Shown here: positions 2,480 through 31,157 of the stretch, in pieces
How the letters are laid out: every line of letters begins with the position of its first letter
How positions within the stretch are numbered: the first letter of the stretch is position 1
Source: Minisyncoccia bacterium
GTDB lineage: Bacteria > Patescibacteriota > Minisyncoccia > Phycocordibacterales > Phycocordibacteraceae
Direction of reading: 5' to 3'
Length of the DNA: 64,000 bases
Assembly (NCBI GenBank): GCA_050011835.1
Contig: JBEKII010000002.1
Span: 76,173 to 140,172, forward strand
Made by a program: the position numbers and the translations under genes
The notes under the pieces: generated by a model
Database searches by the model: none
What the model was told of the DNA's origin: nothing
Seen by the model: the letters and a program-made list of their open reading frames with translations, nothing else

Positions 2480-3481
2480 TTATCCTACTGCATTTTCGTA
2501 TCTTCTCAAATGCTTTGGATTATGACTGCCTATAATTAAGAAGTACCGTTTCATATCTCCGATACTATCAAGACGAACATCATGGCCGGTTATTCTTGAA
2601 TGAAGTCCGAATTTCCCCAGAAGAGCGTGCACAGAACGTCGCAACGGTTTCGAGGCACTTGTAAATGACAGTTTTTTGTAAGCGTACCATGTGTCTTTCA
2701 CGCGATACCGATGTGTAAAAATGGATCCATCTGTATCAATAAGTCCTCGTAGGCACGCCATCGCGAATTTTTTATCGCGCTTGATCCACACAGGAATGTC
2801 GAATTGTTGTCTGACTTTATTTCCTATCGGCAACCCTAATTCGTGCAAATATCGCACCAGTTCTGTTCTGGATACAACAATGTCGTTTACAGAATTTTTT
2901 GGTGAGTGATAAATACTCGGCGTTATTCTGAAAAGTTTCTTAATAAGATTCACTACAAATATGACATATTCCAAGTCATCGATATGATGAAGAGTAATTA
3001 TGATTTGATATTTGCTAATGCCACCATCACCCATCATGATGCCTATAAACTCAGCGAGTTTCTCACTGCGATGCGGTCTGCGAATATTTTTCGGCTCGAG
3101 GATAGGATTCCTTTTGAACTTTCCTGTAGTTTCCCACCATAGATGCCATTGTTCTTTCCGATACTTTTCGTTGCGTGGAATACAACCATATTTTTTTATG
3201 ACCGCAGCGAGACCCATTTTGCTGGCTTTTGTAATATGTGCATATGCATCACGAGTGCAAATGTTTTTAGGGATCGGAATACATATCCGTTCAGAGAGTA
3301 AATGAACGACAGTAAGCGGCATAGAAAATTTTTCTCTGCGCCAATCTCGGACAGCCCGCTCAGAGCAATGGGAAATACGAGCCATATCAGCAATCGTTAA
3401 TCTTTCCCCCACACGCTTTAAAAATGTCTGTTGTTCGCCGGAAGGAAATACGACTCTTTTATCTTTAAACGTTTTAGCCAT
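2480..3481 (-). CDS. LAGLIDADG-family (double-motif) endonuclease with an N-terminal HTH
   Basis: 333 aa. Two LAGLIDADG-like motifs (GIMMGDGGI and LRGLIDTDGS). HTH-like N-terminus (LTIADMARISHCSERAVRDW). Stop codon lies 9 nt upstream of tRNA-Ser, same strand. Confidence 0.7.
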   Translation of the reverse strand: MAKTFKDKRVVFPSGEQQTFLKRVGERLTIADMARISHCSERAVRDWRREKFSMPLTVVHLLSERICIPIPKNICTRDAYAHITKASKMGLAAVIKKYGCIPRNEKYRKEQWHLWWETTGKFKRNPILEPKNIRRPHRSEKLAEFIGIMMGDGGISKYQIIITLHHIDDLEYVIFVVNLIKKLFRITPSIYHSPKNSVNDIVVSRTELVRYLHELGLPIGNKVRQQFDIPVWIKRDKKFAMACLRGLIDTDGSIFTHRYRVKDTWYAYKKLSFTSASKPLRRSVHALLGKFGLHSRITGHDVRLDSIGDMKRYFLIIGSHNPKHLRRYENAVG

Positions 3482-6501: not shown

Positions 6502-8292
6502 ATGAATCTTCTTGGATTATTTGTTGACAAGGGTTTTCTTTCTCCACGCGACCGTGCGGTAGTTGAAGCCGAACTCGCGAAGAAGCGCCCGTTCGCTGAA
6601 ATACTTGCCGAGTATGGCGTATCGCTCTCCGATGCGCTTGCAGAAGTGGGGAAAACCTACGGACTTCCGACGCGCCTTCTCGGTGACCCGCCCGCTAATG
6701 AAGAGGTGTTTAACTACGTTCCCTTCGACTCCGCTCGTCATTATGGATTTGTGCCGCTCGATATCGTGGATGGTGCGCTCGAGGTTGGCATTACCGACCC
6801 CGACAACATTGAGGCGCTCGACGCGCTGCAATTTATCTCCGGCAAAACCGGCACCCCTTATAAAATTTTTCTCATCACAAAACAGGATTTTGATCGTGTG
6901 CTCGATGCCTATCAAAATCTTTCGGGTGAAATCGGTAAAGCGCTTACTGAATATGAGACGACGACGAAGCCTGTTGCCGCCGAAACACAACAGAAGACCG
7001 GCGCACCCGCATCGCCACCTGAGACGCCCGCGTTTGAAGAAGAAGAGCTCGTTCTCACCGGTCCGCGCGAGGCGTTGAAGGAGGATGCCCCGGTAACGAA
7101 AATCGTCTCAACGATATTAAGATACGCCATTGAGGGTCATGCTTCTGATGTACATATTGAGCCCTCACCGAAGAAAACGCGAGTTCGTTTCCGCATGGAT
7201 GGCGTTCTCCATACGTCGTTGGAGTTGCCAGCGAAGGTGCACGAAGCGGTTGTCGCGCGTGTCAAAATACTTGCGAAACTACGCCTGGACGAAAAGCGGA
7301 AACCGCAAGACGGGCGCTTCTCGGCGACTGTTGAAAAGCGCCGCATTGACTTCCGCGTCTCCACTTTTCCGACGGAGTATGGCGAGAAGGTCGCGATGCG
7401 CATCCTTGACCAGTCGGCCGCAACGGCGACGCTTGAATCGGTCGGATTTTCGAGCGCAAATCTTGCCGTAGTCCGCGAAATGATGAAAATCCCTTACGGC
7501 ATTATCCTCATCGCTGGGCCAACCGGTTCGGGCAAATCGACAACGCTCTTTGCGATGCTTTCTGAACTTGACCGCGAAGCGGAGAATGTCGTGTCGCTTG
7601 AAGATCCCGTTGAATACGAAATTTCCGATGTCTCGCAGAGTCAGGTGCGGCCCGAGATCGGCTACACTTTCGCAAACGGGCTTCGTTCCATCTTGCGCCA
7701 GGACCCGGACGTTATTATGGTCGGCGAAATTCGCGATAAGGAAACCGCAGCTCTCGCCGTCCAGGCGGCGCTCACGGGACACCTCGTCTTCTCCACCATT
7801 CATACGAATACCGCTGCTGGTGCAATTCCACGCCTCGTCGATATGGGCGTTGACCCTTTCCTCATAGCGCCGACTTTGGTCGCCATCATCGGACAGCGAT
7901 TAGTTCGTCGATTCTCCGAGGGAGGAGGCAAATCTTTTCCGATTACGGATAGTCTCCGGACGTTTCTTGACAGGGAATTTATTGATTTGCCGAAAGAATA
8001 CCGAGATAAGCTCCCGCCATTTAAGGAGTTTTATCATGCGAGCCCGACCGCGCAGAGTCCTAGCGGTATCCGCGGTCGCACCGCCGTCTTTGAGATACTA
8101 CGTATGGATAAAAATCTTGAACAGGTCGTGCTCAAGGAGCCGGTAGAAGAAAAGATTTATGCCGCTGCGCGCATGGGTGGTATGCTTACTATGCGCGAAG
8201 ATGCGATCGTGAAAGCACTTACCGGCGAGATTCCCTTTGAGGAAATCAACACACTCGGCGGAGAACTTTTCCCCGAAGAGGAAGAAGATTGA
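6502..8292 (+). CDS. pilB: Type IV pilus assembly ATPase PilB (GspE family)
   Basis: 596 aa. Walker A GPTGSGKSTTL, Asp box, His box, and an N-terminal GSPII_E_N-like domain. Confidence 0.9.
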   Translation: MNLLGLFVDKGFLSPRDRAVVEAELAKKRPFAEILAEYGVSLSDALAEVGKTYGLPTRLLGDPPANEEVFNYVPFDSARHYGFVPLDIVDGALEVGITDPDNIEALDALQFISGKTGTPYKIFLITKQDFDRVLDAYQNLSGEIGKALTEYETTTKPVAAETQQKTGAPASPPETPAFEEEELVLTGPREALKEDAPVTKIVSTILRYAIEGHASDVHIEPSPKKTRVRFRMDGVLHTSLELPAKVHEAVVARVKILAKLRLDEKRKPQDGRFSATVEKRRIDFRVSTFPTEYGEKVAMRILDQSAATATLESVGFSSANLAVVREMMKIPYGIILIAGPTGSGKSTTLFAMLSELDREAENVVSLEDPVEYEISDVSQSQVRPEIGYTFANGLRSILRQDPDVIMVGEIRDKETAALAVQAALTGHLVFSTIHTNTAAGAIPRLVDMGVDPFLIAPTLVAIIGQRLVRRFSEGGGKSFPITDSLRTFLDREFIDLPKEYRDKLPPFKEFYHASPTAQSPSGIRGRTAVFEILRMDKNLEQVVLKEPVEEKIYAAARMGGMLTMREDAIVKALTGEIPFEEINTLGGELFPEEEED

Positions 8293-21421: not shown

Positions 21422-21492
21422 CGCGGGGTAGAGGAGAGGTACCTCGGGAGGCCCATAACCTCCAGACGCCGGTTCGATTCCGGCCCCCGCAA
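21422..21492 (+). tRNA. tRNA-Met(CAU)
   Basis: Acceptor CGCGGGG/CCCCGCA with a C1:A72 mismatch. T8A9. D-stem GAGG/CCTC. Anticodon stem GGAGG/CCTCC with loop CCCATAA. T-arm GCCGG-TTCGATT-CCGGC. Confidence 0.75.
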
Positions 21493-21575
21493 CACGGTTG
21501 TGAGTCAGTGTCAAGTACCGCCCCGCACCAGAAGTTTTGAAAAGTTGATACAGTACCGATAGGCATGAAGCTCCG
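21488..21575 (+). repeat. att-like core CAACACGGTTGTGA plus ~80-nt tail, copy 1; overlaps the tRNA-Met 3' end
   Basis: The same core and a related tail (..CAGTACCG..GTACTGTACCGA..) recur at 32572 and 34618. Degenerate cores occur at 24752 and 35848. Confidence 0.6.
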
Positions 21576-21632: not shown

Positions 21633-22715
<1,083 letters not shown>

Positions 22716-22717
22716 GT

Positions 22718-23068
22718 ATGAATGATGCCGATATTCCGATTCTGAAGAAAGCATATGATTTGTATCTCACCTTTCACACGTATCGGCGTGTCGTGCCCAA
22801 AGCCGAGCGATTCACCCTCTACGAACGTTGTGAGAACGCAATTCTCGATATGGTCGAAGCGATTCTTGAAGCCGGATACTCGAAGAGCGCACAGAAGATG
22901 ACAGTGCTCGAACGTGCAAGCGTGAAGCTCAATATCATTCGCTTTTTCATCCGCCTTTTGAAGGAAACTCGTTCCATCGATACGAAGAAATATGTGAAGC
23001 TCCAAGAAATGATTGATGAGATCGGTAGAATGCTCGGCGGATGGATACGATCGACGGATTCTCGATAA
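22718..23068 (+). CDS. avd: DGR accessory variability determinant (Avd; four-helix-bundle family)
   Basis: 116 aa. C-terminus EIGRMLGGWIRS resembles the Bordetella phage bAvd EVGRILGSWIAR. Placed adjacent to the RT. Confidence 0.75.
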   Translation: MNDADIPILKKAYDLYLTFHTYRRVVPKAERFTLYERCENAILDMVEAILEAGYSKSAQKMTVLERASVKLNIIRFFIRLLKETRSIDTKKYVKLQEMIDEIGRMLGGWIRSTDSR

Positions 23069-23109
23069 CAAACAGCGTCCGTCAGGACGCTGTTTGGGGT
23101 GAGAAGCGA

Positions 23110-23239
23110 CTTCGGAAGGAACGCCGATGCCGAACCATAGTTGTCGTTCGCATTGTCGATCCAGTTCGTGTTGAACTTGAGCCTGCCGTCGTTGAAGTTG
23201 AAGATCGGCGCGTTCGAGAACTCGGACTCGTCGCTCGGC
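23110..23239 (-). repeat. DGR template repeat (TR); sense strand is minus
   Basis: ~130 nt matching the 3' end of the target gene. Rich in AAC codons. Mismatches to the VR are mostly at TR adenines. Flanked by the perfect hairpin aaacagcgtcc-gtca-ggacgctgttt (23075-23105). Confidence 0.7.
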
Positions 23240-23675
23240 GTTTGCCCTCGCCCGTCCGTGGCACCGGAGCTTGAGACCGTCTCTCGCTCCTGAACTTTAT
23301 CCGGCGACACCGTATTAGCGGTTCGCCTTGGGCGAAGGCAAGCAGTATCTCCTCACCAAGGGCACGCTTGTGCAAATCGTGATCGGCACAACTCTGGCCC
23401 GGTTTCTCGAAGAGAAAGAGTTCGGCGACGGCCGTCCGTGGAGAACCGTGCATGAGCCTAGACTCGCTCATGAATATAGCAGATGCGGCGGAATCGCGGA
23501 ATTTGACTATTTATACCAGACGTGCTATCCTCTAGCCAGATTAAAAGTCCTTTCCAATCCAAGAATCACTGGGTATGAGACGAGCTTTTTGCGGCTTATT
23601 GCTAGGCCGTAGCAAGCTCGTCTCATACAGAGCCGCACGTCGGGGCGAATCCGGCAAAAAAGGAGAGCTAACGTT

Positions 23676-24582
23676 ATGAAAACGCTTACTCAAACTCAAG
23701 AACCAGCAACCGAAGGGCAGATCAAATCGATTGCGCGCGTAGGTTCGGACGCTGCCGACAAAGCCGTTCGCGATTATTTCGCAGCAAACCCAACGACCAA
23801 AGAAAATGCACAGCGCGGACATGCGAGCGGCGACCAACTCGCCGACGTAATCCGCACCGCCGTACAGTCCTGGCTCGCTGACACCGTCGTCTCCGACAAG
23901 TACAAGGACGAAGAAGTGGAATCCAGCTACGGCTATCTTTCCGGGTATATCAAGCCGAAAGATAGTGCCGACCAGCTCAAGATCCTGCACGAATACTTTC
24001 CGGAGCTGCCAAAGGGCGATTTGTCGCCGCTCGGCATCGCTGCAGAAAATGCAGAGGGTACTTTCATCATTCCGCACTGGTCGCTCGTTGCCAAAACCTA
24101 TCCTGAAGCGGTACAGAAAATCATCGTTGCACTCACCAAACAGCGTGGCGGCAAATTCCACAACTACCGCGATGGCGAGATTGACGCAGATCACATTCGC
24201 GAAACGACGCAAAAGATTGCGGCCATGCAACAGCTGCGTGACGCACAGAAGAGCGATCTGCTTCAGGTTCCTGCACAGTTCGGCATTCGCCATCGCGGAC
24301 GCTCAGTCCGCAGGGCACGCGAAATCTTCGCCGTCAACGAGTTCGGTCTCGGTGCCTGGGAAATCGGCTGTATGCTCCTCACCACCCATCCCGAGCGCCT
24401 CAACGACTACAACGACCTCTGGATCGATTGTGCTGGCGATGAGTTCAAGCCGAGCGACGAGTCCGAGTTCTCGCGCGCGCCGGTCTTCAGCTTCCGCGGC
24501 GGCAAGCCCATGTTCGGCGCTGGCGAGGTCGGCATTGCCAACGACGACTATGGCTCCGCATCGGCGTTCCTCCCGCAGTGAT
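23676..24582 (+). CDS. DGR target protein with a C-terminal variable region (C-type-lectin-like VR)
   Basis: 301 aa. Strong RBS aaggagag. The C-terminus ...SDESEFSRAPVFSFRGGKPMFGAGEVGIANDDYGSASAFLPQ matches the TR-encoded ...SDESEFSNAPIFNFNDGRLKFNTNWIDNANDNYGSASAFLPK. Confidence 0.75.
24450..24579 (+). repeat. DGR variable repeat (VR)
   Basis: Aligns to the TR over ~130 nt with 28 mismatches, 19 of them at TR adenines. Followed by the inverted repeat ctcgagtcc...ggctcgag (24591-24637). Confidence 0.7.
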
Positions 24583-24680: not shown

Positions 24681-24689
24681 ATTATGATG

Positions 24690-24770
24690 GGCGTCGGAAT
24701 CGAACTAAAAGTTCAAGCATCTAGGCCATAGAAAGTCCAGTTCGATTATGGACCCGGCAACAAGGTCAGA
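24690..24770. repeat. Island junction: two oppositely oriented tRNA-3'-end-like fragments, a 30-mer repeat, and a degenerate att core
   Basis: Minus strand: GTTCGATTCCGACGCCCATCA. Plus strand: AAGTCCAGTTCGATTATGGACCCGGCAACA, identical to 34595-34624, followed by aggtcagactg (degenerate CAACACGGTTGTGA). Confidence 0.55.
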
Positions 24771-26267
24771 CTGTCCAGCACGGAAGTCCTTAGATAGCTT
24801 GAATATGGGCGACAAAACAGCGGTGCCAAACAATCCGGTGGTTTTGTCGTACACGATGCCCTCTGGTAGCACCAATTTCTGCAATCGTTGCTTCTTTGCA
24901 GGGTTCGTTAGATCGAGCCACTGACGCGCCACATCGCGCACAAATTGCGTTCCATAGGCCAGTTGTATCTCAAGGTCTGCTTCGCTCGTCTGTGCCTCGT
25001 TCTTGGCGATTCTAAGCCCTGTGAGCTGGTTATCTAGCGAATCACGCATCTCGGTATATTCTTCTTTAGAAATCTCTTGGTTAACGCGCATAGTCAGTAG
25101 TCGTCGCTTCTGATTCTCCAAGTTGCCCAATCGGACGGCATAATGCTGTTTCTCCTGTCCCGCGCTTGTCTTGCGAGAGCGTATCTCGTCGAGCATCACT
25201 TGTTCAAACATACTGACAAACTTCTCGGTAGGCGTAATCCGCTTTAGGTAACCGTAGAACTTCTTTTCCAAAATATCCTTGGCGATATTATCTCTGTTGG
25301 TACAGGCCGAATTGTGGCAACGATAGTAGGGGTACTTTTTACCACTACGGCCTGTCTGCCAACTCGCGGTCATGAAAGATCCACAGGTACAGCGAATAGC
25401 CCCGCGTAACGGGAAATCGGGATGGTGTTTAAGGCGGAAACTGGTCGCGTTATTTGATAACCCGCGCTTCACGTTCTGAATGGCCCCGTATTCTTCAAGC
25501 GTAATCATCGGCTTGTGCAGTCCTCGATGTTCGTCGCCGCTCCACGGGTCAGTAAGGACTCCGGCATAGAACTTGTTTGTAAGTATTACGTTCCAGAGCT
25601 GTTTGCTCATCGGCTTACCGGTTCGCGTTTGTAAACCCCATTTATTACTCTCCTCGGCCAGTTGCGTGATGGTGTGCTGTCCGCCAGTATAAAGGCGTAA
25701 ACCCTTTTGAATGAGATAGAAACGCTCCTCATCTGGTTGATCCGGTAGAAGCTTGCGACGCTCCACTCTGTTCTTTGAGTTCGTATATCCTATTGGCGGC
25801 ATCCATGGCGAAATGCCATCGCGCAGACGCGCCCGCATACCGCCCTCGCATCGTTGCTTGCGTATATCGTTTTCAAATTGAGCATATCCGGCTAGCATCG
25901 CCTCAAGCATTTTTCCTACAGGCCCCTCGCTGATTATTTCTTCCGTAACTGAATGTAGAGAAGTGCCGTACTTGAGCAGTTGCGCTTGTAGCCCATAGTG
26001 GTCGGTCATGTTGCGAGCGAAGCGGTCGAGCTTCCAGACAATGAAGGCCTTTATCTCGTCCTTATGTTCCTTGCAGTAGTCGAGTGCCTTGATGAGTTCG
26101 GTGCGATTCGCGGCAGTAGCCGATTCGCCGCGCTCAATGAAAATCTTTGCCACCTTTAAGCCCTTATTTTCGGCATACTCTATACACGCACGCTCTTGGC
26201 TCTCCAAACTGGTGCCGTGGAGCTGGTCGTTAGAAGATACTCGACAGTATATGATTCCTTGGTTCAT
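24705..26267 (-). CDS. Large serine recombinase (integrase)
   Basis: 520 aa. N-terminal resolvase catalytic domain IYCRVSSNDQ...S...R, a recombinase domain, and a Cys-rich zinc-ribbon region (CTCGSF...CHNSAC). Its 3' end overlaps the 30-mer repeat. Confidence 0.85.
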   Translation of the reverse strand: MNQGIIYCRVSSNDQLHGTSLESQERACIEYAENKGLKVAKIFIERGESATAANRTELIKALDYCKEHKDEIKAFIVWKLDRFARNMTDHYGLQAQLLKYGTSLHSVTEEIISEGPVGKMLEAMLAGYAQFENDIRKQRCEGGMRARLRDGISPWMPPIGYTNSKNRVERRKLLPDQPDEERFYLIQKGLRLYTGGQHTITQLAEESNKWGLQTRTGKPMSKQLWNVILTNKFYAGVLTDPWSGDEHRGLHKPMITLEEYGAIQNVKRGLSNNATSFRLKHHPDFPLRGAIRCTCGSFMTASWQTGRSGKKYPYYRCHNSACTNRDNIAKDILEKKFYGYLKRITPTEKFVSMFEQVMLDEIRSRKTSAGQEKQHYAVRLGNLENQKRRLLTMRVNQEISKEEYTEMRDSLDNQLTGLRIAKNEAQTSEADLEIQLAYGTQFVRDVARQWLDLTNPAKKQRLQKLVLPEGIVYDKTTGLFGTAVLSPIFKLSKDFRAGQSDLVAGSIIELDFLWPRCLNF

Positions 26268-26497
26268 GGGGTTCCTTCGGTTAATGATACACCGGAAAGC
26301 GCGTCTCGTTTTCCATACCCGTCTTCTTTGCCAATGTCCAAAATCAATCCGGCGAGTTTATACATCTCGTCTCTAACAGCTGCAACCTCGGAATCACTCA
26401 TTGATTCGCTGGTTTCAGCGTCTAGATATTTCCGGCAATCTTGAACGTTGAGCATAGCTATCTCCTGTTTTCGCCCTCGGACATACACGGCATACAC
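26264..26497 (-). CDS. Small hypothetical protein upstream of the integrase (excisionase or regulator candidate)
   Basis: 77 aa, acidic. Its stop overlaps the integrase start (operon-like). Confidence 0.35.
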   Translation of the reverse strand: MYAVYVRGRKQEIAMLNVQDCRKYLDAETSESMSDSEVAAVRDEMYKLAGLILDIGKEDGYGKRDALSGVSLTEGTP

Positions 26498-26499
26498 AA

Positions 26500-26610
26500 A
26501 ATGATTTCAATGAGCATCTGTAAGGGCACTGTGAGTGTATGCGCCCGTGTATGCGCAAGTGTGGTGTATGAGGAGCATGCACTTGGAATCGATATACACG
26601 TTTCCATACA
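26500..26610. promoter_or_regulatory. Iteron-like cluster of TGTATG/CATACA motifs
   Basis: At least 7 copies in 110 bp (catacac, gtgtatgcgc x2, gtgtatgag, atatacacg, catacact), immediately upstream of the small-ORF/integrase operon. Confidence 0.45.
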
Positions 26611-28050
26611 CTAGGATTCTTTAACATCTCCCTCATTCGTTTCGGGAGTGCATGGTTGTGTAGGCACATCCTCGTTTGCGACAGAGAAGTACGCCTTGTA
26701 GACCGCATCGACCTGTTCTCGCTTGAAGCGGTAACGTGCAGCCCTGTTGCTTCTCGGAAGTTTTTCAGAAGAGAGATTGAATTTAGCGATGACTTTCCCA
26801 ACTTCAGCCGCCCGCTGTTTTTTTGTGATGCAGTCCTCATCAAACAGAAAGACGTCTACAGACTCAGAGATTTCAGATGGCGAAAGAACCATCTCATCCT
26901 GCTCGCCTAAGAGCTGGCGTGTGACCTCTATGATGGCTTGCTCCAGATCCGATACTTGGTATTCAGTGAAGTTGTATTGAGACAAGAATCGTTCCTTGGC
27001 TATTCGCTGGTCGTTTTCCGGTACTCCAAGTACAGAAAACATGACATCGAAAAGCATCCAGAGTTCCAGTTTCCTTGCAAAAAATGCAGGGTTGGTCTGT
27101 CGTTCATACTCAATCTTCTTCATTACATGCGTACCTACAGCAAACATAAAATGGCCAATCAACAATCGGTACAAAGCCCCTCTGGTCTCTTTCCATATAG
27201 GGCTCTCCTCATCAAGAGACTTGAAATTCTTTCTGCTACGCACCAACGAAATGACGATGCACCGGTCGCGCAAGTCTTCGGGGAGTTCTTTTATTGAGGC
27301 AAACGCCTTCGGACTATACGCTTGAAATTCCTCCAAATTCCAATTCTTGCCCTTATCGGCAACCATTTTTCGAATGTTGCCACCCCCACGCTTATAGGAA
27401 TCAGTGAGGATGTCGAGAAGGTCTTCCATGTAGAATGGTCTATTGAGAACATCGGCTTGATCCATGAGATATGTGCCTCGCAACGAATCAACCGTGTCTC
27501 GTAGCGCTGGGAGGCTTGCACGGGCTTTGGTGGCGTTGAAACAGACTTGGTTCAAGAAGCTCAAGCACTGGGTCTTTCCGGAGCCTTTTGGCGCTTTAAT
27601 GTGCAGATAGGGATACGCCGAGAACAGCGGAAAGAAATACGTTCCGATAGCCCATGTACACATAAGAATTACATCAGCCTCGTCAATATCCATGTGTTGT
27701 TTGAGGAGGCTTTTGAGACTCTCGAATATCTCTAGTGGCGCTTGTACTTTCTGACCCGTGAGAAAGGTTTTTAGGAACGCATCGAGTTCTTTTCTGCTCC
27801 ACCGGTGCGCGAGCTTGGCCAGCACTCTTTTCTTAGTGTCAATGTAGTATGTTTTATCTTTAATCGTGAAAGAGTTGCCGGTGATGGTAAAGGCCGATGT
27901 GGCGGTCGCAATAACGAAAAGCTCACTACCGTCTTTGTTAGCCTCCGGTTTGACTCTGAATCCGAGCACGAGAATGTCGTCCTTGATGTCGAGTGATGGG
28001 TGAAAGTTTATTTCCTCGTAGAAGTCAGTCTCGTTGCTTTGCGTTTCCAT
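26611..28050 (-). CDS. P-loop NTPase, likely a replication helicase/primase-associated protein (VirE/D5-like)
   Basis: 479 aa. Walker A KAPKGSGKTQ. Walker-B-like YLMDQAD. In island context. Confidence 0.5.
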   Translation of the reverse strand: METQSNETDFYEEINFHPSLDIKDDILVLGFRVKPEANKDGSELFVIATATSAFTITGNSFTIKDKTYYIDTKKRVLAKLAHRWSRKELDAFLKTFLTGQKVQAPLEIFESLKSLLKQHMDIDEADVILMCTWAIGTYFFPLFSAYPYLHIKAPKGSGKTQCLSFLNQVCFNATKARASLPALRDTVDSLRGTYLMDQADVLNRPFYMEDLLDILTDSYKRGGGNIRKMVADKGKNWNLEEFQAYSPKAFASIKELPEDLRDRCIVISLVRSRKNFKSLDEESPIWKETRGALYRLLIGHFMFAVGTHVMKKIEYERQTNPAFFARKLELWMLFDVMFSVLGVPENDQRIAKERFLSQYNFTEYQVSDLEQAIIEVTRQLLGEQDEMVLSPSEISESVDVFLFDEDCITKKQRAAEVGKVIAKFNLSSEKLPRSNRAARYRFKREQVDAVYKAYFSVANEDVPTQPCTPETNEGDVKES

Positions 28051-28062
28051 ATCAATTTAGTG

Positions 28063-28332
28063 TTAATTTCCATTTAATCTGTCGAGTAACTCGTTTCGCG
28101 CACGCTCGTAGAGATGCACCGGCACGAGTAATTCCGTGTCGTTTCGTTCACCGAATTTATATTTCTCAACTAGCTCCTCTAGGTAAGGTGAGAGCACGAA
28201 CGCAAACTCTTTTTTGCCCGAATCCGATACAACATTGATGCCTGCTATCTGCTGGTTTTTAGCGAATAAAAAGATAGCGAGTTTTAATGATGTGGTGCGG
28301 AGGTACCGCTCTTTATCTGTTCTTGATTTCAT
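28063..28332 (-). CDS. Hypothetical small protein (island)
   Basis: 89-aa ORF in operon arrangement with the ATPase. Confidence 0.35.
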   Translation of the reverse strand: MKSRTDKERYLRTTSLKLAIFLFAKNQQIAGINVVSDSGKKEFAFVLSPYLEELVEKYKFGERNDTELLVPVHLYERARNELLDRLNGN

Positions 28333-29149: not shown

Positions 29150-29300
29150 CCGAATATGTGCCTAAACCCTCGGTAACGAGGGCATGGCGAGAGGCCCTGT
29201 AGAGATCAGAAAACCCATCATGTGGGACTGTCTCTACAGGCCGTAGCGGGAAACCGTTATGGAGGGCGCAAGCCCTCACCCATGTGGTGGGTTTTCTGCG
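29150..29300 (+). ncRNA. Candidate structured RNA or cis-regulatory leader with three GNRA-capped hairpins
   Basis: ccctcg-GTAA-cgaggg. ggccctgtagaga...tctctacaggcc (13-bp stem). cgg-GAAA-ccg. gagggc-GCAA-gccctc. Strand is uncertain. Confidence 0.3.
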
Positions 29301-29336: not shown

Positions 29337-31157
29337 ATGAAAATTACCATGAAAAAAATTACCGTCGCTCTCGCCGTTCTATTTTTTGTAGTGCCATCAG
29401 TATCGTTTGCAGCGGGTCTCACGAATTCACAAATTCAAGCAATACTCTCACTTCTTTCCTCTTTTGGCGCAGATAGCGCGACGGTTGCAAGTGTTCAGAC
29501 AGCTCTAACCGGAACATCAACGACCGGAGGGCAATCCTGCTACAACTTCTCTACCAATTTACGCATAGGACAAAGCGGCTCTGGCATCACCGCGCTTCAA
29601 ACGGCGCTTCGGAATGACGGGGAATCAGTAACCGTGAGCGGCTCGTTTGACGATCAAACCGCCTCTGCTGTTACGGGTCTCCAACAAAAGTATGCAAACG
29701 ATATCCTTACCCCGAATGGCCTTCAATACGGTACTGGCTATGTTGGTGCTGCAACGAGAGCGAAATTGAATAGCCTTTGTGCCAATGGTTATCAACAGAC
29801 GACCTCAGCGATGAATCCGGCGACAACACAAACAGTAACGCCGACACCGCCGACACCGCAGACCAATCAACAAAATACTCAGCCGGTAACACCAACTCCG
29901 ACACCTTCTGTTTCTTCAACACAAACAAATTCACCATGGGTAGACATTAAGGCCGATGGTTCTAATGGCCCGATTACTATGCCCATAGACGGCCCAGCAG
30001 TAACAATCTCTTGGACATCGCATGGTGTACTGAATTGTGCCTTTACCGACATGTCGGGTGTAGCGACGAGCGTCAGCACATCTGGCAGTAAATCGGAATC
30101 GTTCTCAGGAACGGCGCAGAAGAATACAGTAACTATTAGCTGCTCTGCTCTGGTGAATAATGTTGTTACACCAAATGCGGTTTCCGACTCGGTCGTTGTG
30201 AATGTAGCCCCTCCAACAGGGCAAATCTCACCGATTTCCGTTTCATCCGATTCGAGTCCAGCCAATGTATTCCAAGGTACCGGCGGGACACTCGCTAGCT
30301 TCACTCTGACTGGTTCAAATGAGGCAGTAAAAGTTACCGACCTCTATCTCTGCTCCATTGATTCGATTCATCATGGTGGTCTTGCAAACGTCTCCATCAT
30401 GGGAGTCAATGCCTCGACACTGTCGATTGTCGACTGCGATACGAGCCCTGCAGGCACTGACTTCTCGCTCGGTTCTTCTCTCATCCTGCCAGCCAGAGGT
30501 ACGGCCTCAATAACTGTCTCCGGCACTGTGAAAACATCGACAGGAACAAATCTCTCGGACGGCGAGACGGTGCAAATCAAGCTCGTCGGTCAGGGTTCTC
30601 AAGGATCTAATGGCGTAGGCCAATCTTCACTCAATCCTTACACCATACCGAGTAGCGATGTCTTAGGACGCGCGGTGCCCGTTGTCGGTAGTGGGACACT
30701 TTCTGCATCTCCGGCATACTCGTGCTCGTTGGTTCAGACCGGTCTTGGTAATCAGAGTGCCTGTCTCGGATCATTTACGCTCTCTGCGATGAAAGAGGGA
30801 ATCACCGTTAACACAATAGGAATTGATATGTCGGCAGCCAATGCGGCGCTCGTGACGAATCTAACACTGAAGTATCACTATGGTGATAACAATCAGGGTG
30901 CAGTACTTGGCTCAGTCATCACAACACCAAGTGCAAACAATCCGTTTTATATGACTCCTGTATCTTTTGGTACTGGGAGGGGTCTCGATATTTCAACCTC
31001 GGGACTCACAACGATTGATGTCTATGGAAATGTTCCATCGGGTGCGGGTACAATTCAATTGACTCTCGACCCATCGACGAGCGGTACTGGCGATATGACG
31101 GGCATTTCGGCCTCGCTTGCCTCGCCAGTGCAGCTCAAGGCCGTTACAATTCAGTAG
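29337..31157 (+). CDS. Secreted cell-surface protein with a PG-binding-like domain and Ig-like repeats
   Basis: 606 aa. Signal peptide plus a conserved leader (AAGLTNSQIQAILSLLSSFGADSAT). A LxxGxxGxxVxxLQ PG_binding_1-like block. Thr/Pro-rich linker. Confidence 0.65.
   Translation: MKITMKKITVALAVLFFVVPSVSFAAGLTNSQIQAILSLLSSFGADSATVASVQTALTGTSTTGGQSCYNFSTNLRIGQSGSGITALQTALRNDGESVTVSGSFDDQTASAVTGLQQKYANDILTPNGLQYGTGYVGAATRAKLNSLCANGYQQTTSAMNPATTQTVTPTPPTPQTNQQNTQPVTPTPTPSVSSTQTNSPWVDIKADGSNGPITMPIDGPAVTISWTSHGVLNCAFTDMSGVATSVSTSGSKSESFSGTAQKNTVTISCSALVNNVVTPNAVSDSVVVNVAPPTGQISPISVSSDSSPANVFQGTGGTLASFTLTGSNEAVKVTDLYLCSIDSIHHGGLANVSIMGVNASTLSIVDCDTSPAGTDFSLGSSLILPARGTASITVSGTVKTSTGTNLSDGETVQIKLVGQGSQGSNGVGQSSLNPYTIPSSDVLGRAVPVVGSGTLSASPAYSCSLVQTGLGNQSACLGSFTLSAMKEGITVNTIGIDMSAANAALVTNLTLKYHYGDNNQGAVLGSVITTPSANNPFYMTPVSFGTGRGLDISTSGLTTIDVYGNVPSGAGTIQLTLDPSTSGTGDMTGISASLASPVQLKAVTIQ

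Follow-up and report, generated by a model that had tools for sequence, protein, structure and literature searches.

We describe a repeat array in a 64,000-nucleotide (nt) stretch of the Minisyncoccia contig JBEKII010000002.1, hereafter the window, that lies at the 3' end of a gene encoding a 479-amino-acid (aa) protein. The repeats form a real, strongly conserved cis element. By analogy with the Staphylococcus aureus pathogenicity islands (SaPIs) and staphylococcal cassette chromosome mec (SCCmec), we suggest that the array is an iteron origin of the SaPI/SCCmec type, bound by the adjacent self-loading initiator helicase within a small integrative element, and we put the probability of this reading at about 65%. 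It is favored because the array keeps a constant place next to where the ATPase gene ends (3') across 77 of the 91 homologous loci, because relatives of the ATPase are fused to primases, and because the order of helicase, iterons and serine recombinase matches that demonstrated by biochemistry for Cch2/ccrC of SCCmec and for rep/ori of SaPIs. An origin was also one of the two functions that the initial annotation of this region had proposed, the other being a repressor or excisionase operator.

The repeats are far denser than expected by chance. Counting both strands, the window contains seven exact copies of the heptamer GTGTATG, six of which lie within positions 26482-26611, where chance predicts approximately 3.9 copies per window and 0.008 per 130 bp. 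Allowing one mismatch, ten copies (six exact and four with a single mismatch) fall within the 183 bp between 26482 and 26664, where the rate across the window, 121 matches per 64 kb, would give roughly 0.3. General sequence bias was ruled out as the cause, since the one-mismatch heptamer and the hexamer TGTATG (24 seen versus 19.5 expected) both occur at chance level across the window. The initial annotation was thus right that the cluster is genuine. It had placed at least seven copies of a TGTATG(CGC) motif at 26500-26610, an interval that does hold part of the cluster but is too narrow, as it omits a pair of copies at 26482-26497 and single copies at 26648-26654 and 26658-26664. Only four exact copies lie inside that interval, and a count of seven is reached with near-copies or with the outside pair. 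The CGC extension is present at 26535-26544 and 26547-26556 but not on the other copies.

The array begins inside the gene for the 479-aa protein (26611-28050, minus strand), and the genes around it are all on the minus strand. In gene-strand order, a 36-nt spacer separates two reverse copies from three forward ones; three more reverse copies come next, and a 37-nt spacer then leads to a forward pair. The first two reverse copies, GTGTAGG at 26658-26664 and GTGCATG at 26648-26654 (both on the plus strand, each with one mismatch), sit in the last 54 nt of the coding region. Spacer 1 (26612-26647, 58% A+T), which has oppositely oriented iterons on its two sides, encodes the low-confidence C-terminal tail of the 479-aa protein. 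On the minus strand, the forward block then starts with an exact copy at 26605-26611, beginning on the final base of the stop codon (26611-26613), and continues with GTGTATA at 26593-26599 and GTGCATG at 26576-26582, which have one mismatch each. The reverse block that follows comprises exact plus-strand copies at 26564-26570, 26547-26553 and 26535-26541, the latter two carrying the CGC extension. Spacer 2 (26498-26534, 62% A+T) contains no exact or one-mismatch heptamer and, judging from its place between opposed iterons, is a candidate unwinding region. The array closes with a tandem pair of exact forward copies on the minus strand (26491-26497 and 26482-26488), spaced 9 bp start to start and ending 27 nt ahead of the next start codon. 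Spacings within the blocks are unequal, at 12/17, 17/12 and 9 nt. The two spacers compare with 51-54% A+T in their surroundings in the window, and their helix-stability minima are shallow.

To place the array in a wider context, we retrieved 106 homologous loci, 91 of which had enough downstream sequence for analysis. In 39 of these 91 loci, a 6-mer recurred five or more times within the 240 bp surrounding the stop codon, compared with 16 of 1637 control windows drawn from the same loci. The pair TGTA-N5/6-TGTA, which has a background rate of 0.026 per 190 nt, was found in 77 of the 91 (approximately 85%), its median position being +109 nt relative to the stop codon; this count was made after the stop codons of five loci using TGA as a sense codon had been corrected. 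When 60 non-identical loci were anchored on this pair, the copies fell in the same blocks as in the window: reverse copies from -174 to -150, in the coding tail, forward copies from -120 to -84 (at about -120, -102 and -90) and reverse copies from -78 to -48 (at about -78, -60 and -48). A motif-free spacer of conserved length precedes the tandem pair throughout the family. The A+T content of the spacers is on average 8 points above that of their surroundings, and this excess is positive in 49 of 60 loci.

The iterons themselves are conserved at the level of DNA. When five elements with helicases of 56-100% identity were aligned, 51 of the 70 positions within iterons were invariant, compared with 10 of 113 positions between iterons (P = 2e-19); the copies at 26593-26599, 26576-26582, 26564-26570, 26547-26553 and 26535-26541 are all conserved in this alignment. 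Copies within the last 100 nt of the coding sequence were found in 68 of 78 loci, at a density of 1.27 per 100 nt versus 0.014 in the rest of the gene, a roughly 90-fold difference. These coding-tail copies occur in two reading frames, and therefore the constraint acts on the DNA. The motif varies by clade (GTGTATG, GTGTAGG, GTGTAAG or ATGTATG) and changes further in the deepest branches, to GTGAAGTG in locus L018 and TGAAGAG in L020, while the layout is retained. A motif that changes within a constant layout fits an element-encoded, co-evolving binding protein. The tandem pair, spaced by 9-10 bp, has helical-repeat spacing, which fits protein binding on duplex DNA.

Several of the retrieved loci have features of their own. 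One Nomurabacteria metagenome-assembled genome carries two paralogous elements on separate contigs (L011 and L012; SIBT01000022 and SIBT01000023) with slightly different iteron sets, which raises the question of origin specificity or incompatibility. In L022, an 11-nt tandem repeat, GTAATAACAGT, begins about 200 nt downstream of the helicase homolog and is repeated about 12 times to the contig end (approximately 7600-7724). The five loci with corrected stop codons (L017, L083, L086, L087 and L105) are low in G+C (28-33%), have very few TGG codons and contain in-frame TGA at family-invariant Trp positions, corresponding to W133, W286 and W331 of the window protein. The pattern points to UGA being decoded as Trp in these Patescibacteria hosts, and not as Gly, its known reading in Gracilibacteria and Absconditabacteria.

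The 479-aa protein belongs to a large family that has escaped annotation. Its source genome is a member of the Minisyncoccia, within the Candidate Phyla Radiation (CPR)/Patescibacteria, and its hundreds of homologs are annotated as hypothetical, none with a Pfam domain. No family in Pfam, PHROGs or NCBIfam matched it at E <= 0.01, and the VirE/D5-like character suggested by the initial annotation was therefore not borne out. Nor did a model from these three collections match the family members tested, and scanning 36 of them singly at E <= 5 gave scattered weak matches only. The AlphaFold2 model (mean predicted local distance difference test score, pLDDT, of 70; weak at residues 174-253 and below 50 at 456-479) consists of an N-terminal beta domain, an AAA+ core with the Walker A motif GSGKT, a helical lid and a C-terminal helix-strand-helix-helix-hairpin-helix module. 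We predict from the model that this module, at approximately residues 366-455, is a winged helix. The predicted fold is closest to MCM, the SCCmec helicase Cch and SaPI Rep. In a Foldseek search Cch ranked first (probability 0.93), followed by the ORC/Cdc6, NrS-1, adeno-associated virus (AAV) Rep, E1 and large T antigen helicases.

A sequence-profile search of solved structures gave no meaningful match, including to Rep or Cch chains, and phage and plasmid collections yielded weak partial matches only. The informative one was the large ORF that Sulfolobus plasmid pXZ1 carries under a hypothetical annotation; it shares 28% identity across the ATPase core (tblastn E = 4e-8), and we take it to be the pRN-type replication protein. 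A search with the family profile collected 12,481 cluster representatives at E <= 0.001. Among the best-scoring 150 (E <= 1e-55), ten longer relatives were tested and eight had N-terminal replication-protein domains: Prim-Pol with PriCT_1, DnaG zinc ribbon with Toprim, BT4734_N with PriCT_2, AEP-TOTE with PriCT_1, or DnaB_N. Relatives of the 479-aa protein are thus fused to four kinds of primase, with AEP, DnaG-type or other primase domains on many members of the family, and no Pfam model matched the region homologous to it in any fused relative tested. The fusion of one module to non-homologous primases is a hallmark of mobile-element replicative helicases. From the model and these relatives, the 479-aa protein is predicted to be a replication helicase or initiator.

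One distant AEP-TOTE-fused relative, L113, has an array of the same design on an unrelated motif. Four copies of GGGTCAC/GTGACCC lie within its positions 2780-3000, two in the coding tail and two around an A+T-rich 33-nt spacer just past the stop codon.

We also looked for residues that might read the motif. All three loci with a TGAAG-type motif (L018, L020 and L022) replace R433, a residue in the wing that is 99% conserved elsewhere, and have a one-residue deletion beside it; this link between residue and motif is suggestive only. When iteron type (T, A or G at position 6) was scored by mutual information against the columns of the protein alignment, the top 40 columns were spread across all domains, eight of them in the winged helix versus approximately 7.5 expected.

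By analogy with SaPI Rep and the SCCmec helicases Cch and Cch2, the array could work as follows. The serine recombinase would excise the element as a circle, and the C-terminal winged helix of the 479-aa AAA+ protein would bind the GTGTATG heptamers. The opposed heptamer sets on either side of a 36-37-nt spacer would place two helicase oligomers. The spacer would then open, the 479-aa protein would load itself as the replicative helicase, and host primase and polymerase would copy the circle. The tandem pair is so close to the next start codon that an occupied array may also alter how strongly the small ORF and the recombinase gene are expressed, and a dual role as origin plus operator is possible. 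More tentatively, with odds a little short of even, we propose that the 479-aa protein and its two-module, ten-site array constitute a self-sufficient replicon. It would belong to an undescribed, widespread family of CPR/Patescibacteria integrative elements beside tRNA genes, counterparts of SaPIs and SCCmec, with an origin lying partly in the coding tail of its initiator and a new family of initiator helicases. We found no prior description of this element family in the literature searched, which does not cover all journals.

A number of points weigh against an origin served by the 479-aa protein. Its binding to the array, the melting of DNA, the loading of the helicase and replication are all steps that we infer. 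We found no contig on which the element is circular or wraps around, nor, with the patterns used, any relatives in a viral contig collection. A clear unwinding element is not evident, the spacers being only modestly A+T-rich. The binders could instead be other element proteins, namely the DUF5659-like protein of approximately 90 aa or one of approximately 60 aa. The change at R433 is probably a single evolutionary event, and motif-protein covariation is confounded by phylogeny, making that test uninformative. Finally, L113 was the only one of five distant primase-fused relatives inspected to have a comparable array after the gene.

The array might alternatively be a transcriptional operator only, playing no part in replication, through which an element regulator controls initiation at, or read-through into, the genes for the small ORF and the recombinase. 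Candidate regulators could be the 89-aa DUF5659-like protein, the approximately 60-aa protein or the winged helix of the helicase acting as an autoregulator. Multi-site operators with direct and inverted copies are common, and the short distance from the tandem pair to the next start in the window (a median of 50 nt to the next ORF across the family) would suit one. So would the small conserved proteins of unassigned function, DUF5659-like of about 90 aa or of about 60 aa, that accompany the helicase gene in most loci. The DUF5659-like protein gave a confident model but no fold neighbor, and is neither implicated nor cleared as the array binder. Against an operator, no sigma-70-like promoter was found in the array region of the window and no -10-like element lies at a fixed position relative to the tandem pair in 64 loci, which leaves the "promoter region" label of the initial annotation unproven. 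Ten sites spread over 183 bp, with a block in the upstream coding sequence 110-180 nt from the downstream gene, would also be unusual. The downstream gene differs among loci while the array is constant: the gene after the array can be a small ORF, an excisionase-like helix-turn-helix (HTH) gene, the recombinase itself or others. Only 19 loci have the excisionase-like HTH gene after the array, so the excisionase operator once proposed cannot explain an array found family-wide. We therefore consider a purely regulatory array unlikely, although it is the strongest of the alternatives.

The position of the array upstream of a large serine recombinase gene, together with its inverted repeats, could also point to a recombination site (attP, accessory or directionality-factor sites) for the adjacent recombinase. 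The array does not follow the recombinase across loci. Its distance to the stop codon of the helicase homologs is fixed (77 of 91 loci), whereas its distance to the recombinase gene ranges from about 0.06 to 2.6 kb. It is retained in L019, where a tyrosine integrase follows it; the nearly identical L093 and L094 likewise have no serine-recombinase match. The same array also occurs with unrelated serine recombinases, as L001, L002 and L028 keep the GTGTATG of the window beside serine recombinases too divergent for tblastn. In the window the array is uninterrupted inside the element, within a contig of approximately 170 kb that represents the integrated state. The rarity of the excisionase-like HTH gene is a further argument against a recombination site.

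The junction with the host also appears to lie elsewhere, beyond the recombinase gene on the far side from the array. In about 40 loci, including L006, L013, L037, L072-L076 and L079, a tRNA gene on the opposite strand touches or overlaps the recombinase gene at its 3' end. To delimit the elements, we searched these roughly 40 loci for direct repeats, 13 nt or longer, of the 3' end of the tRNA and found none. Because the distance to the recombinase varies, the recombinase type changes and the host junction appears to be elsewhere, the array is not a recombinase site. We rejected attP because the distance varies, because the array is kept beside a tyrosine integrase and because the serine recombinases diverge, and recombination sites of any of these kinds retain only a very slight probability. 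In the window, the recombinase stop codon is succeeded directly by the 3'-half-like tRNA sequence TTCGATTCCGACGCCCA (24688-24705), whose orientation is opposite to that of a tRNA-Met gene (21422-21493) 3.2 kb away, with a retroelement in between.

At the RNA level, the forward, reverse and forward blocks could pair alternatively, and the region is probably transcribed as part of an operon. Such hairpins might act as an attenuator or terminator between the helicase and the downstream genes, a role we regard as highly improbable. The fold of 26456-26680 is no more stable than that of shuffled sequences (z = -1.3; 23 of 200 shuffles as good), the array region of the window has no terminator-like site and no Rfam match at gathering thresholds, and the unequal spacings within blocks allow helices of 7 bp only. 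The helical-repeat spacing of the pair fits a protein on duplex DNA rather than an RNA structure. Lastly, a centromere-like site that a small adaptor protein binds to partition an extrachromosomal form is scarcely probable: short repeat clusters beside an NTPase gene do recall parC/parS, but this NTPase has a classical P-loop in an AAA+ fold like MCM and Cch, not a ParA- or ParM-type one, and no neighboring protein matched ParA, ParM or ParR in Pfam, PHROGs or NCBIfam.

The gene context of the array is as the initial annotation described, between the Walker-A ATPase gene and the small-ORF and recombinase genes. Just upstream of the helicase gene lies that of the 89-aa DUF5659-like protein (28063-28332, minus strand), a conserved neighbor in the family. 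The small ORF after the array was first taken to encode 77 aa. It is present, but more likely encodes 63 aa (26264-26455, minus strand) from an ATG at 26455 preceded by the ribosome-binding site AGGAGA; it had no family match and is not the next gene after the array in every related locus. It is followed on the minus strand by the gene for the 520-aa large serine recombinase (24705-26267), which has Resolvase, Recombinase and Zn_ribbon_recom domains.

Two further features flank this island. A diversity-generating retroelement (21633-24581) adjoins it, with a reverse transcriptase gene (21633-22754, minus strand), a bAvd gene (22718-23068, plus strand) and a target gene (23676-24581, plus strand). 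Its 131-nt template repeat (23109-23239) has the opposite orientation to the variable repeat (24449-24579), and 18 of the 27 mismatches between the two are at template adenines. On the other side, a LOOT RNA (Rfam RF03000; 84 bits, E = 2e-14) at 29159-29277 on the plus strand lies between the island and the gene of a 606-aa signal-peptide protein (29337-31157).

The CPR/Patescibacteria account for a large share of bacterial diversity, yet have almost no genetic tools and few characterized mobile elements. Our analysis provides a concrete candidate pair of initiator and origin, with defined sites, spacers and a candidate DNA-reading residue. This makes it testable whether small integrative elements replicate in a SaPI-like manner after excision, whether a large unannotated protein family represents initiator helicases, and whether a minimal replicon for these bacteria is at hand. 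The combination of a helicase gene, blocks of GTGTAnG and a recombinase gene, in that order, can also serve as an annotation signature. If the origin reading is true, the gene together with 26482-26664 could seed the first plasmid-type vector for the CPR/Patescibacteria.

We compared the array with four known systems. Classical plasmid iterons, as in RepA, pi and TrfA plasmids, are direct repeats of approximately 17-22 bp, bound by WH1-WH2 Rep proteins that recruit DnaB. The likeness to our array lies in repeated (here putative) initiator-binding sites beside the initiator gene and in a possible coupling to autoregulation. In contrast to those direct repeats, all ten copies here are heptamers in both orientations, and the candidate initiator is of the AAA+ helicase type. 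A Rep_3/RepA-type iteron origin was rejected on these grounds: 7-nt repeats in both orientations, and an AAA+ fold in the neighboring protein.

Phage P4 carries the octamer TGTTCACC in direct and inverted copies within two separate cis regions, ori and crr, and its reader is the helicase-type initiator alpha, through a C-terminal winged helix. Both systems therefore have a short repeat in two orientations, two modules and a winged-helix reader, the last being predicted here. The P4 alpha protein is a D5/SF3-type primase-helicase fusion, whereas the 479-aa protein stands alone and matched no D5 or P4 family model. The ori and crr regions of P4 are kilobases apart, while the two modules here are adjacent. 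A primase-helicase of the D5/VirE/P4 type was rejected as well, with no D5_N, VirE, Primase_Cte or related model matching at E <= 0.01.

SCCmec has the same gene order; there, iterons in the cch2-ccrC intergenic region, its putative origin, are bound by the C-terminal domain of Cch2, whose activity needs them (PMC7581432). In both cases a self-loading helicase (predicted here) is followed by an intergenic region with iterons and a large serine recombinase gene. The SCCmec iterons are three direct AAGTG repeats, with inverted repeats dispensable for binding, compared with ten heptamers of alternating orientation here. SCCmec also encodes the primase-polymerase CCPol-MP, for which no counterpart was recognized in our element, and the structural similarity of Cch to the 479-aa protein is moderate (12% identity). 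The integration context of SCCmec is rlmH, in contrast to the tRNA gene beside the recombinase gene in about 40 of our loci.

The organization of the sites also resembles that of SaPI origins, which lie directly 3' of rep and have 6-12 iterons of five or six nucleotides surrounding an A+T-rich centre; two or more flank it on either side, pointing in opposite directions, and the C-terminal winged helix of the self-loading Rep binds them (PMC9371898). Here too, short iterons start right 3' of the gene of the predicted initiator helicase, the first forward copy overlapping the stop codon, and the site number of ten is within the SaPI range. Opposed sets flank a spacer twice, as three reverse copies, 37 nt and two forward copies, and as two reverse copies, 36 nt and three forward copies. 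The hosting element is integrative in both. The differences are that our iterons are heptamers, that they form four blocks with two 36-37-nt spacers instead of surrounding a single, clearly A+T-rich centre, and that one block lies inside the coding tail of the initiator. In addition, no primase gene was recognized beside the array in the window, the recombinase is a serine recombinase where SaPIs have a tyrosine integrase, the search of solved structures detected no likeness to Rep or Cch chains at the sequence level, and the hosts are CPR bacteria. Set beside these systems, the array and its helicase are best read, by analogy, as a new instance of the known SaPI/SCCmec kind of initiator-helicase-plus-iteron origin.
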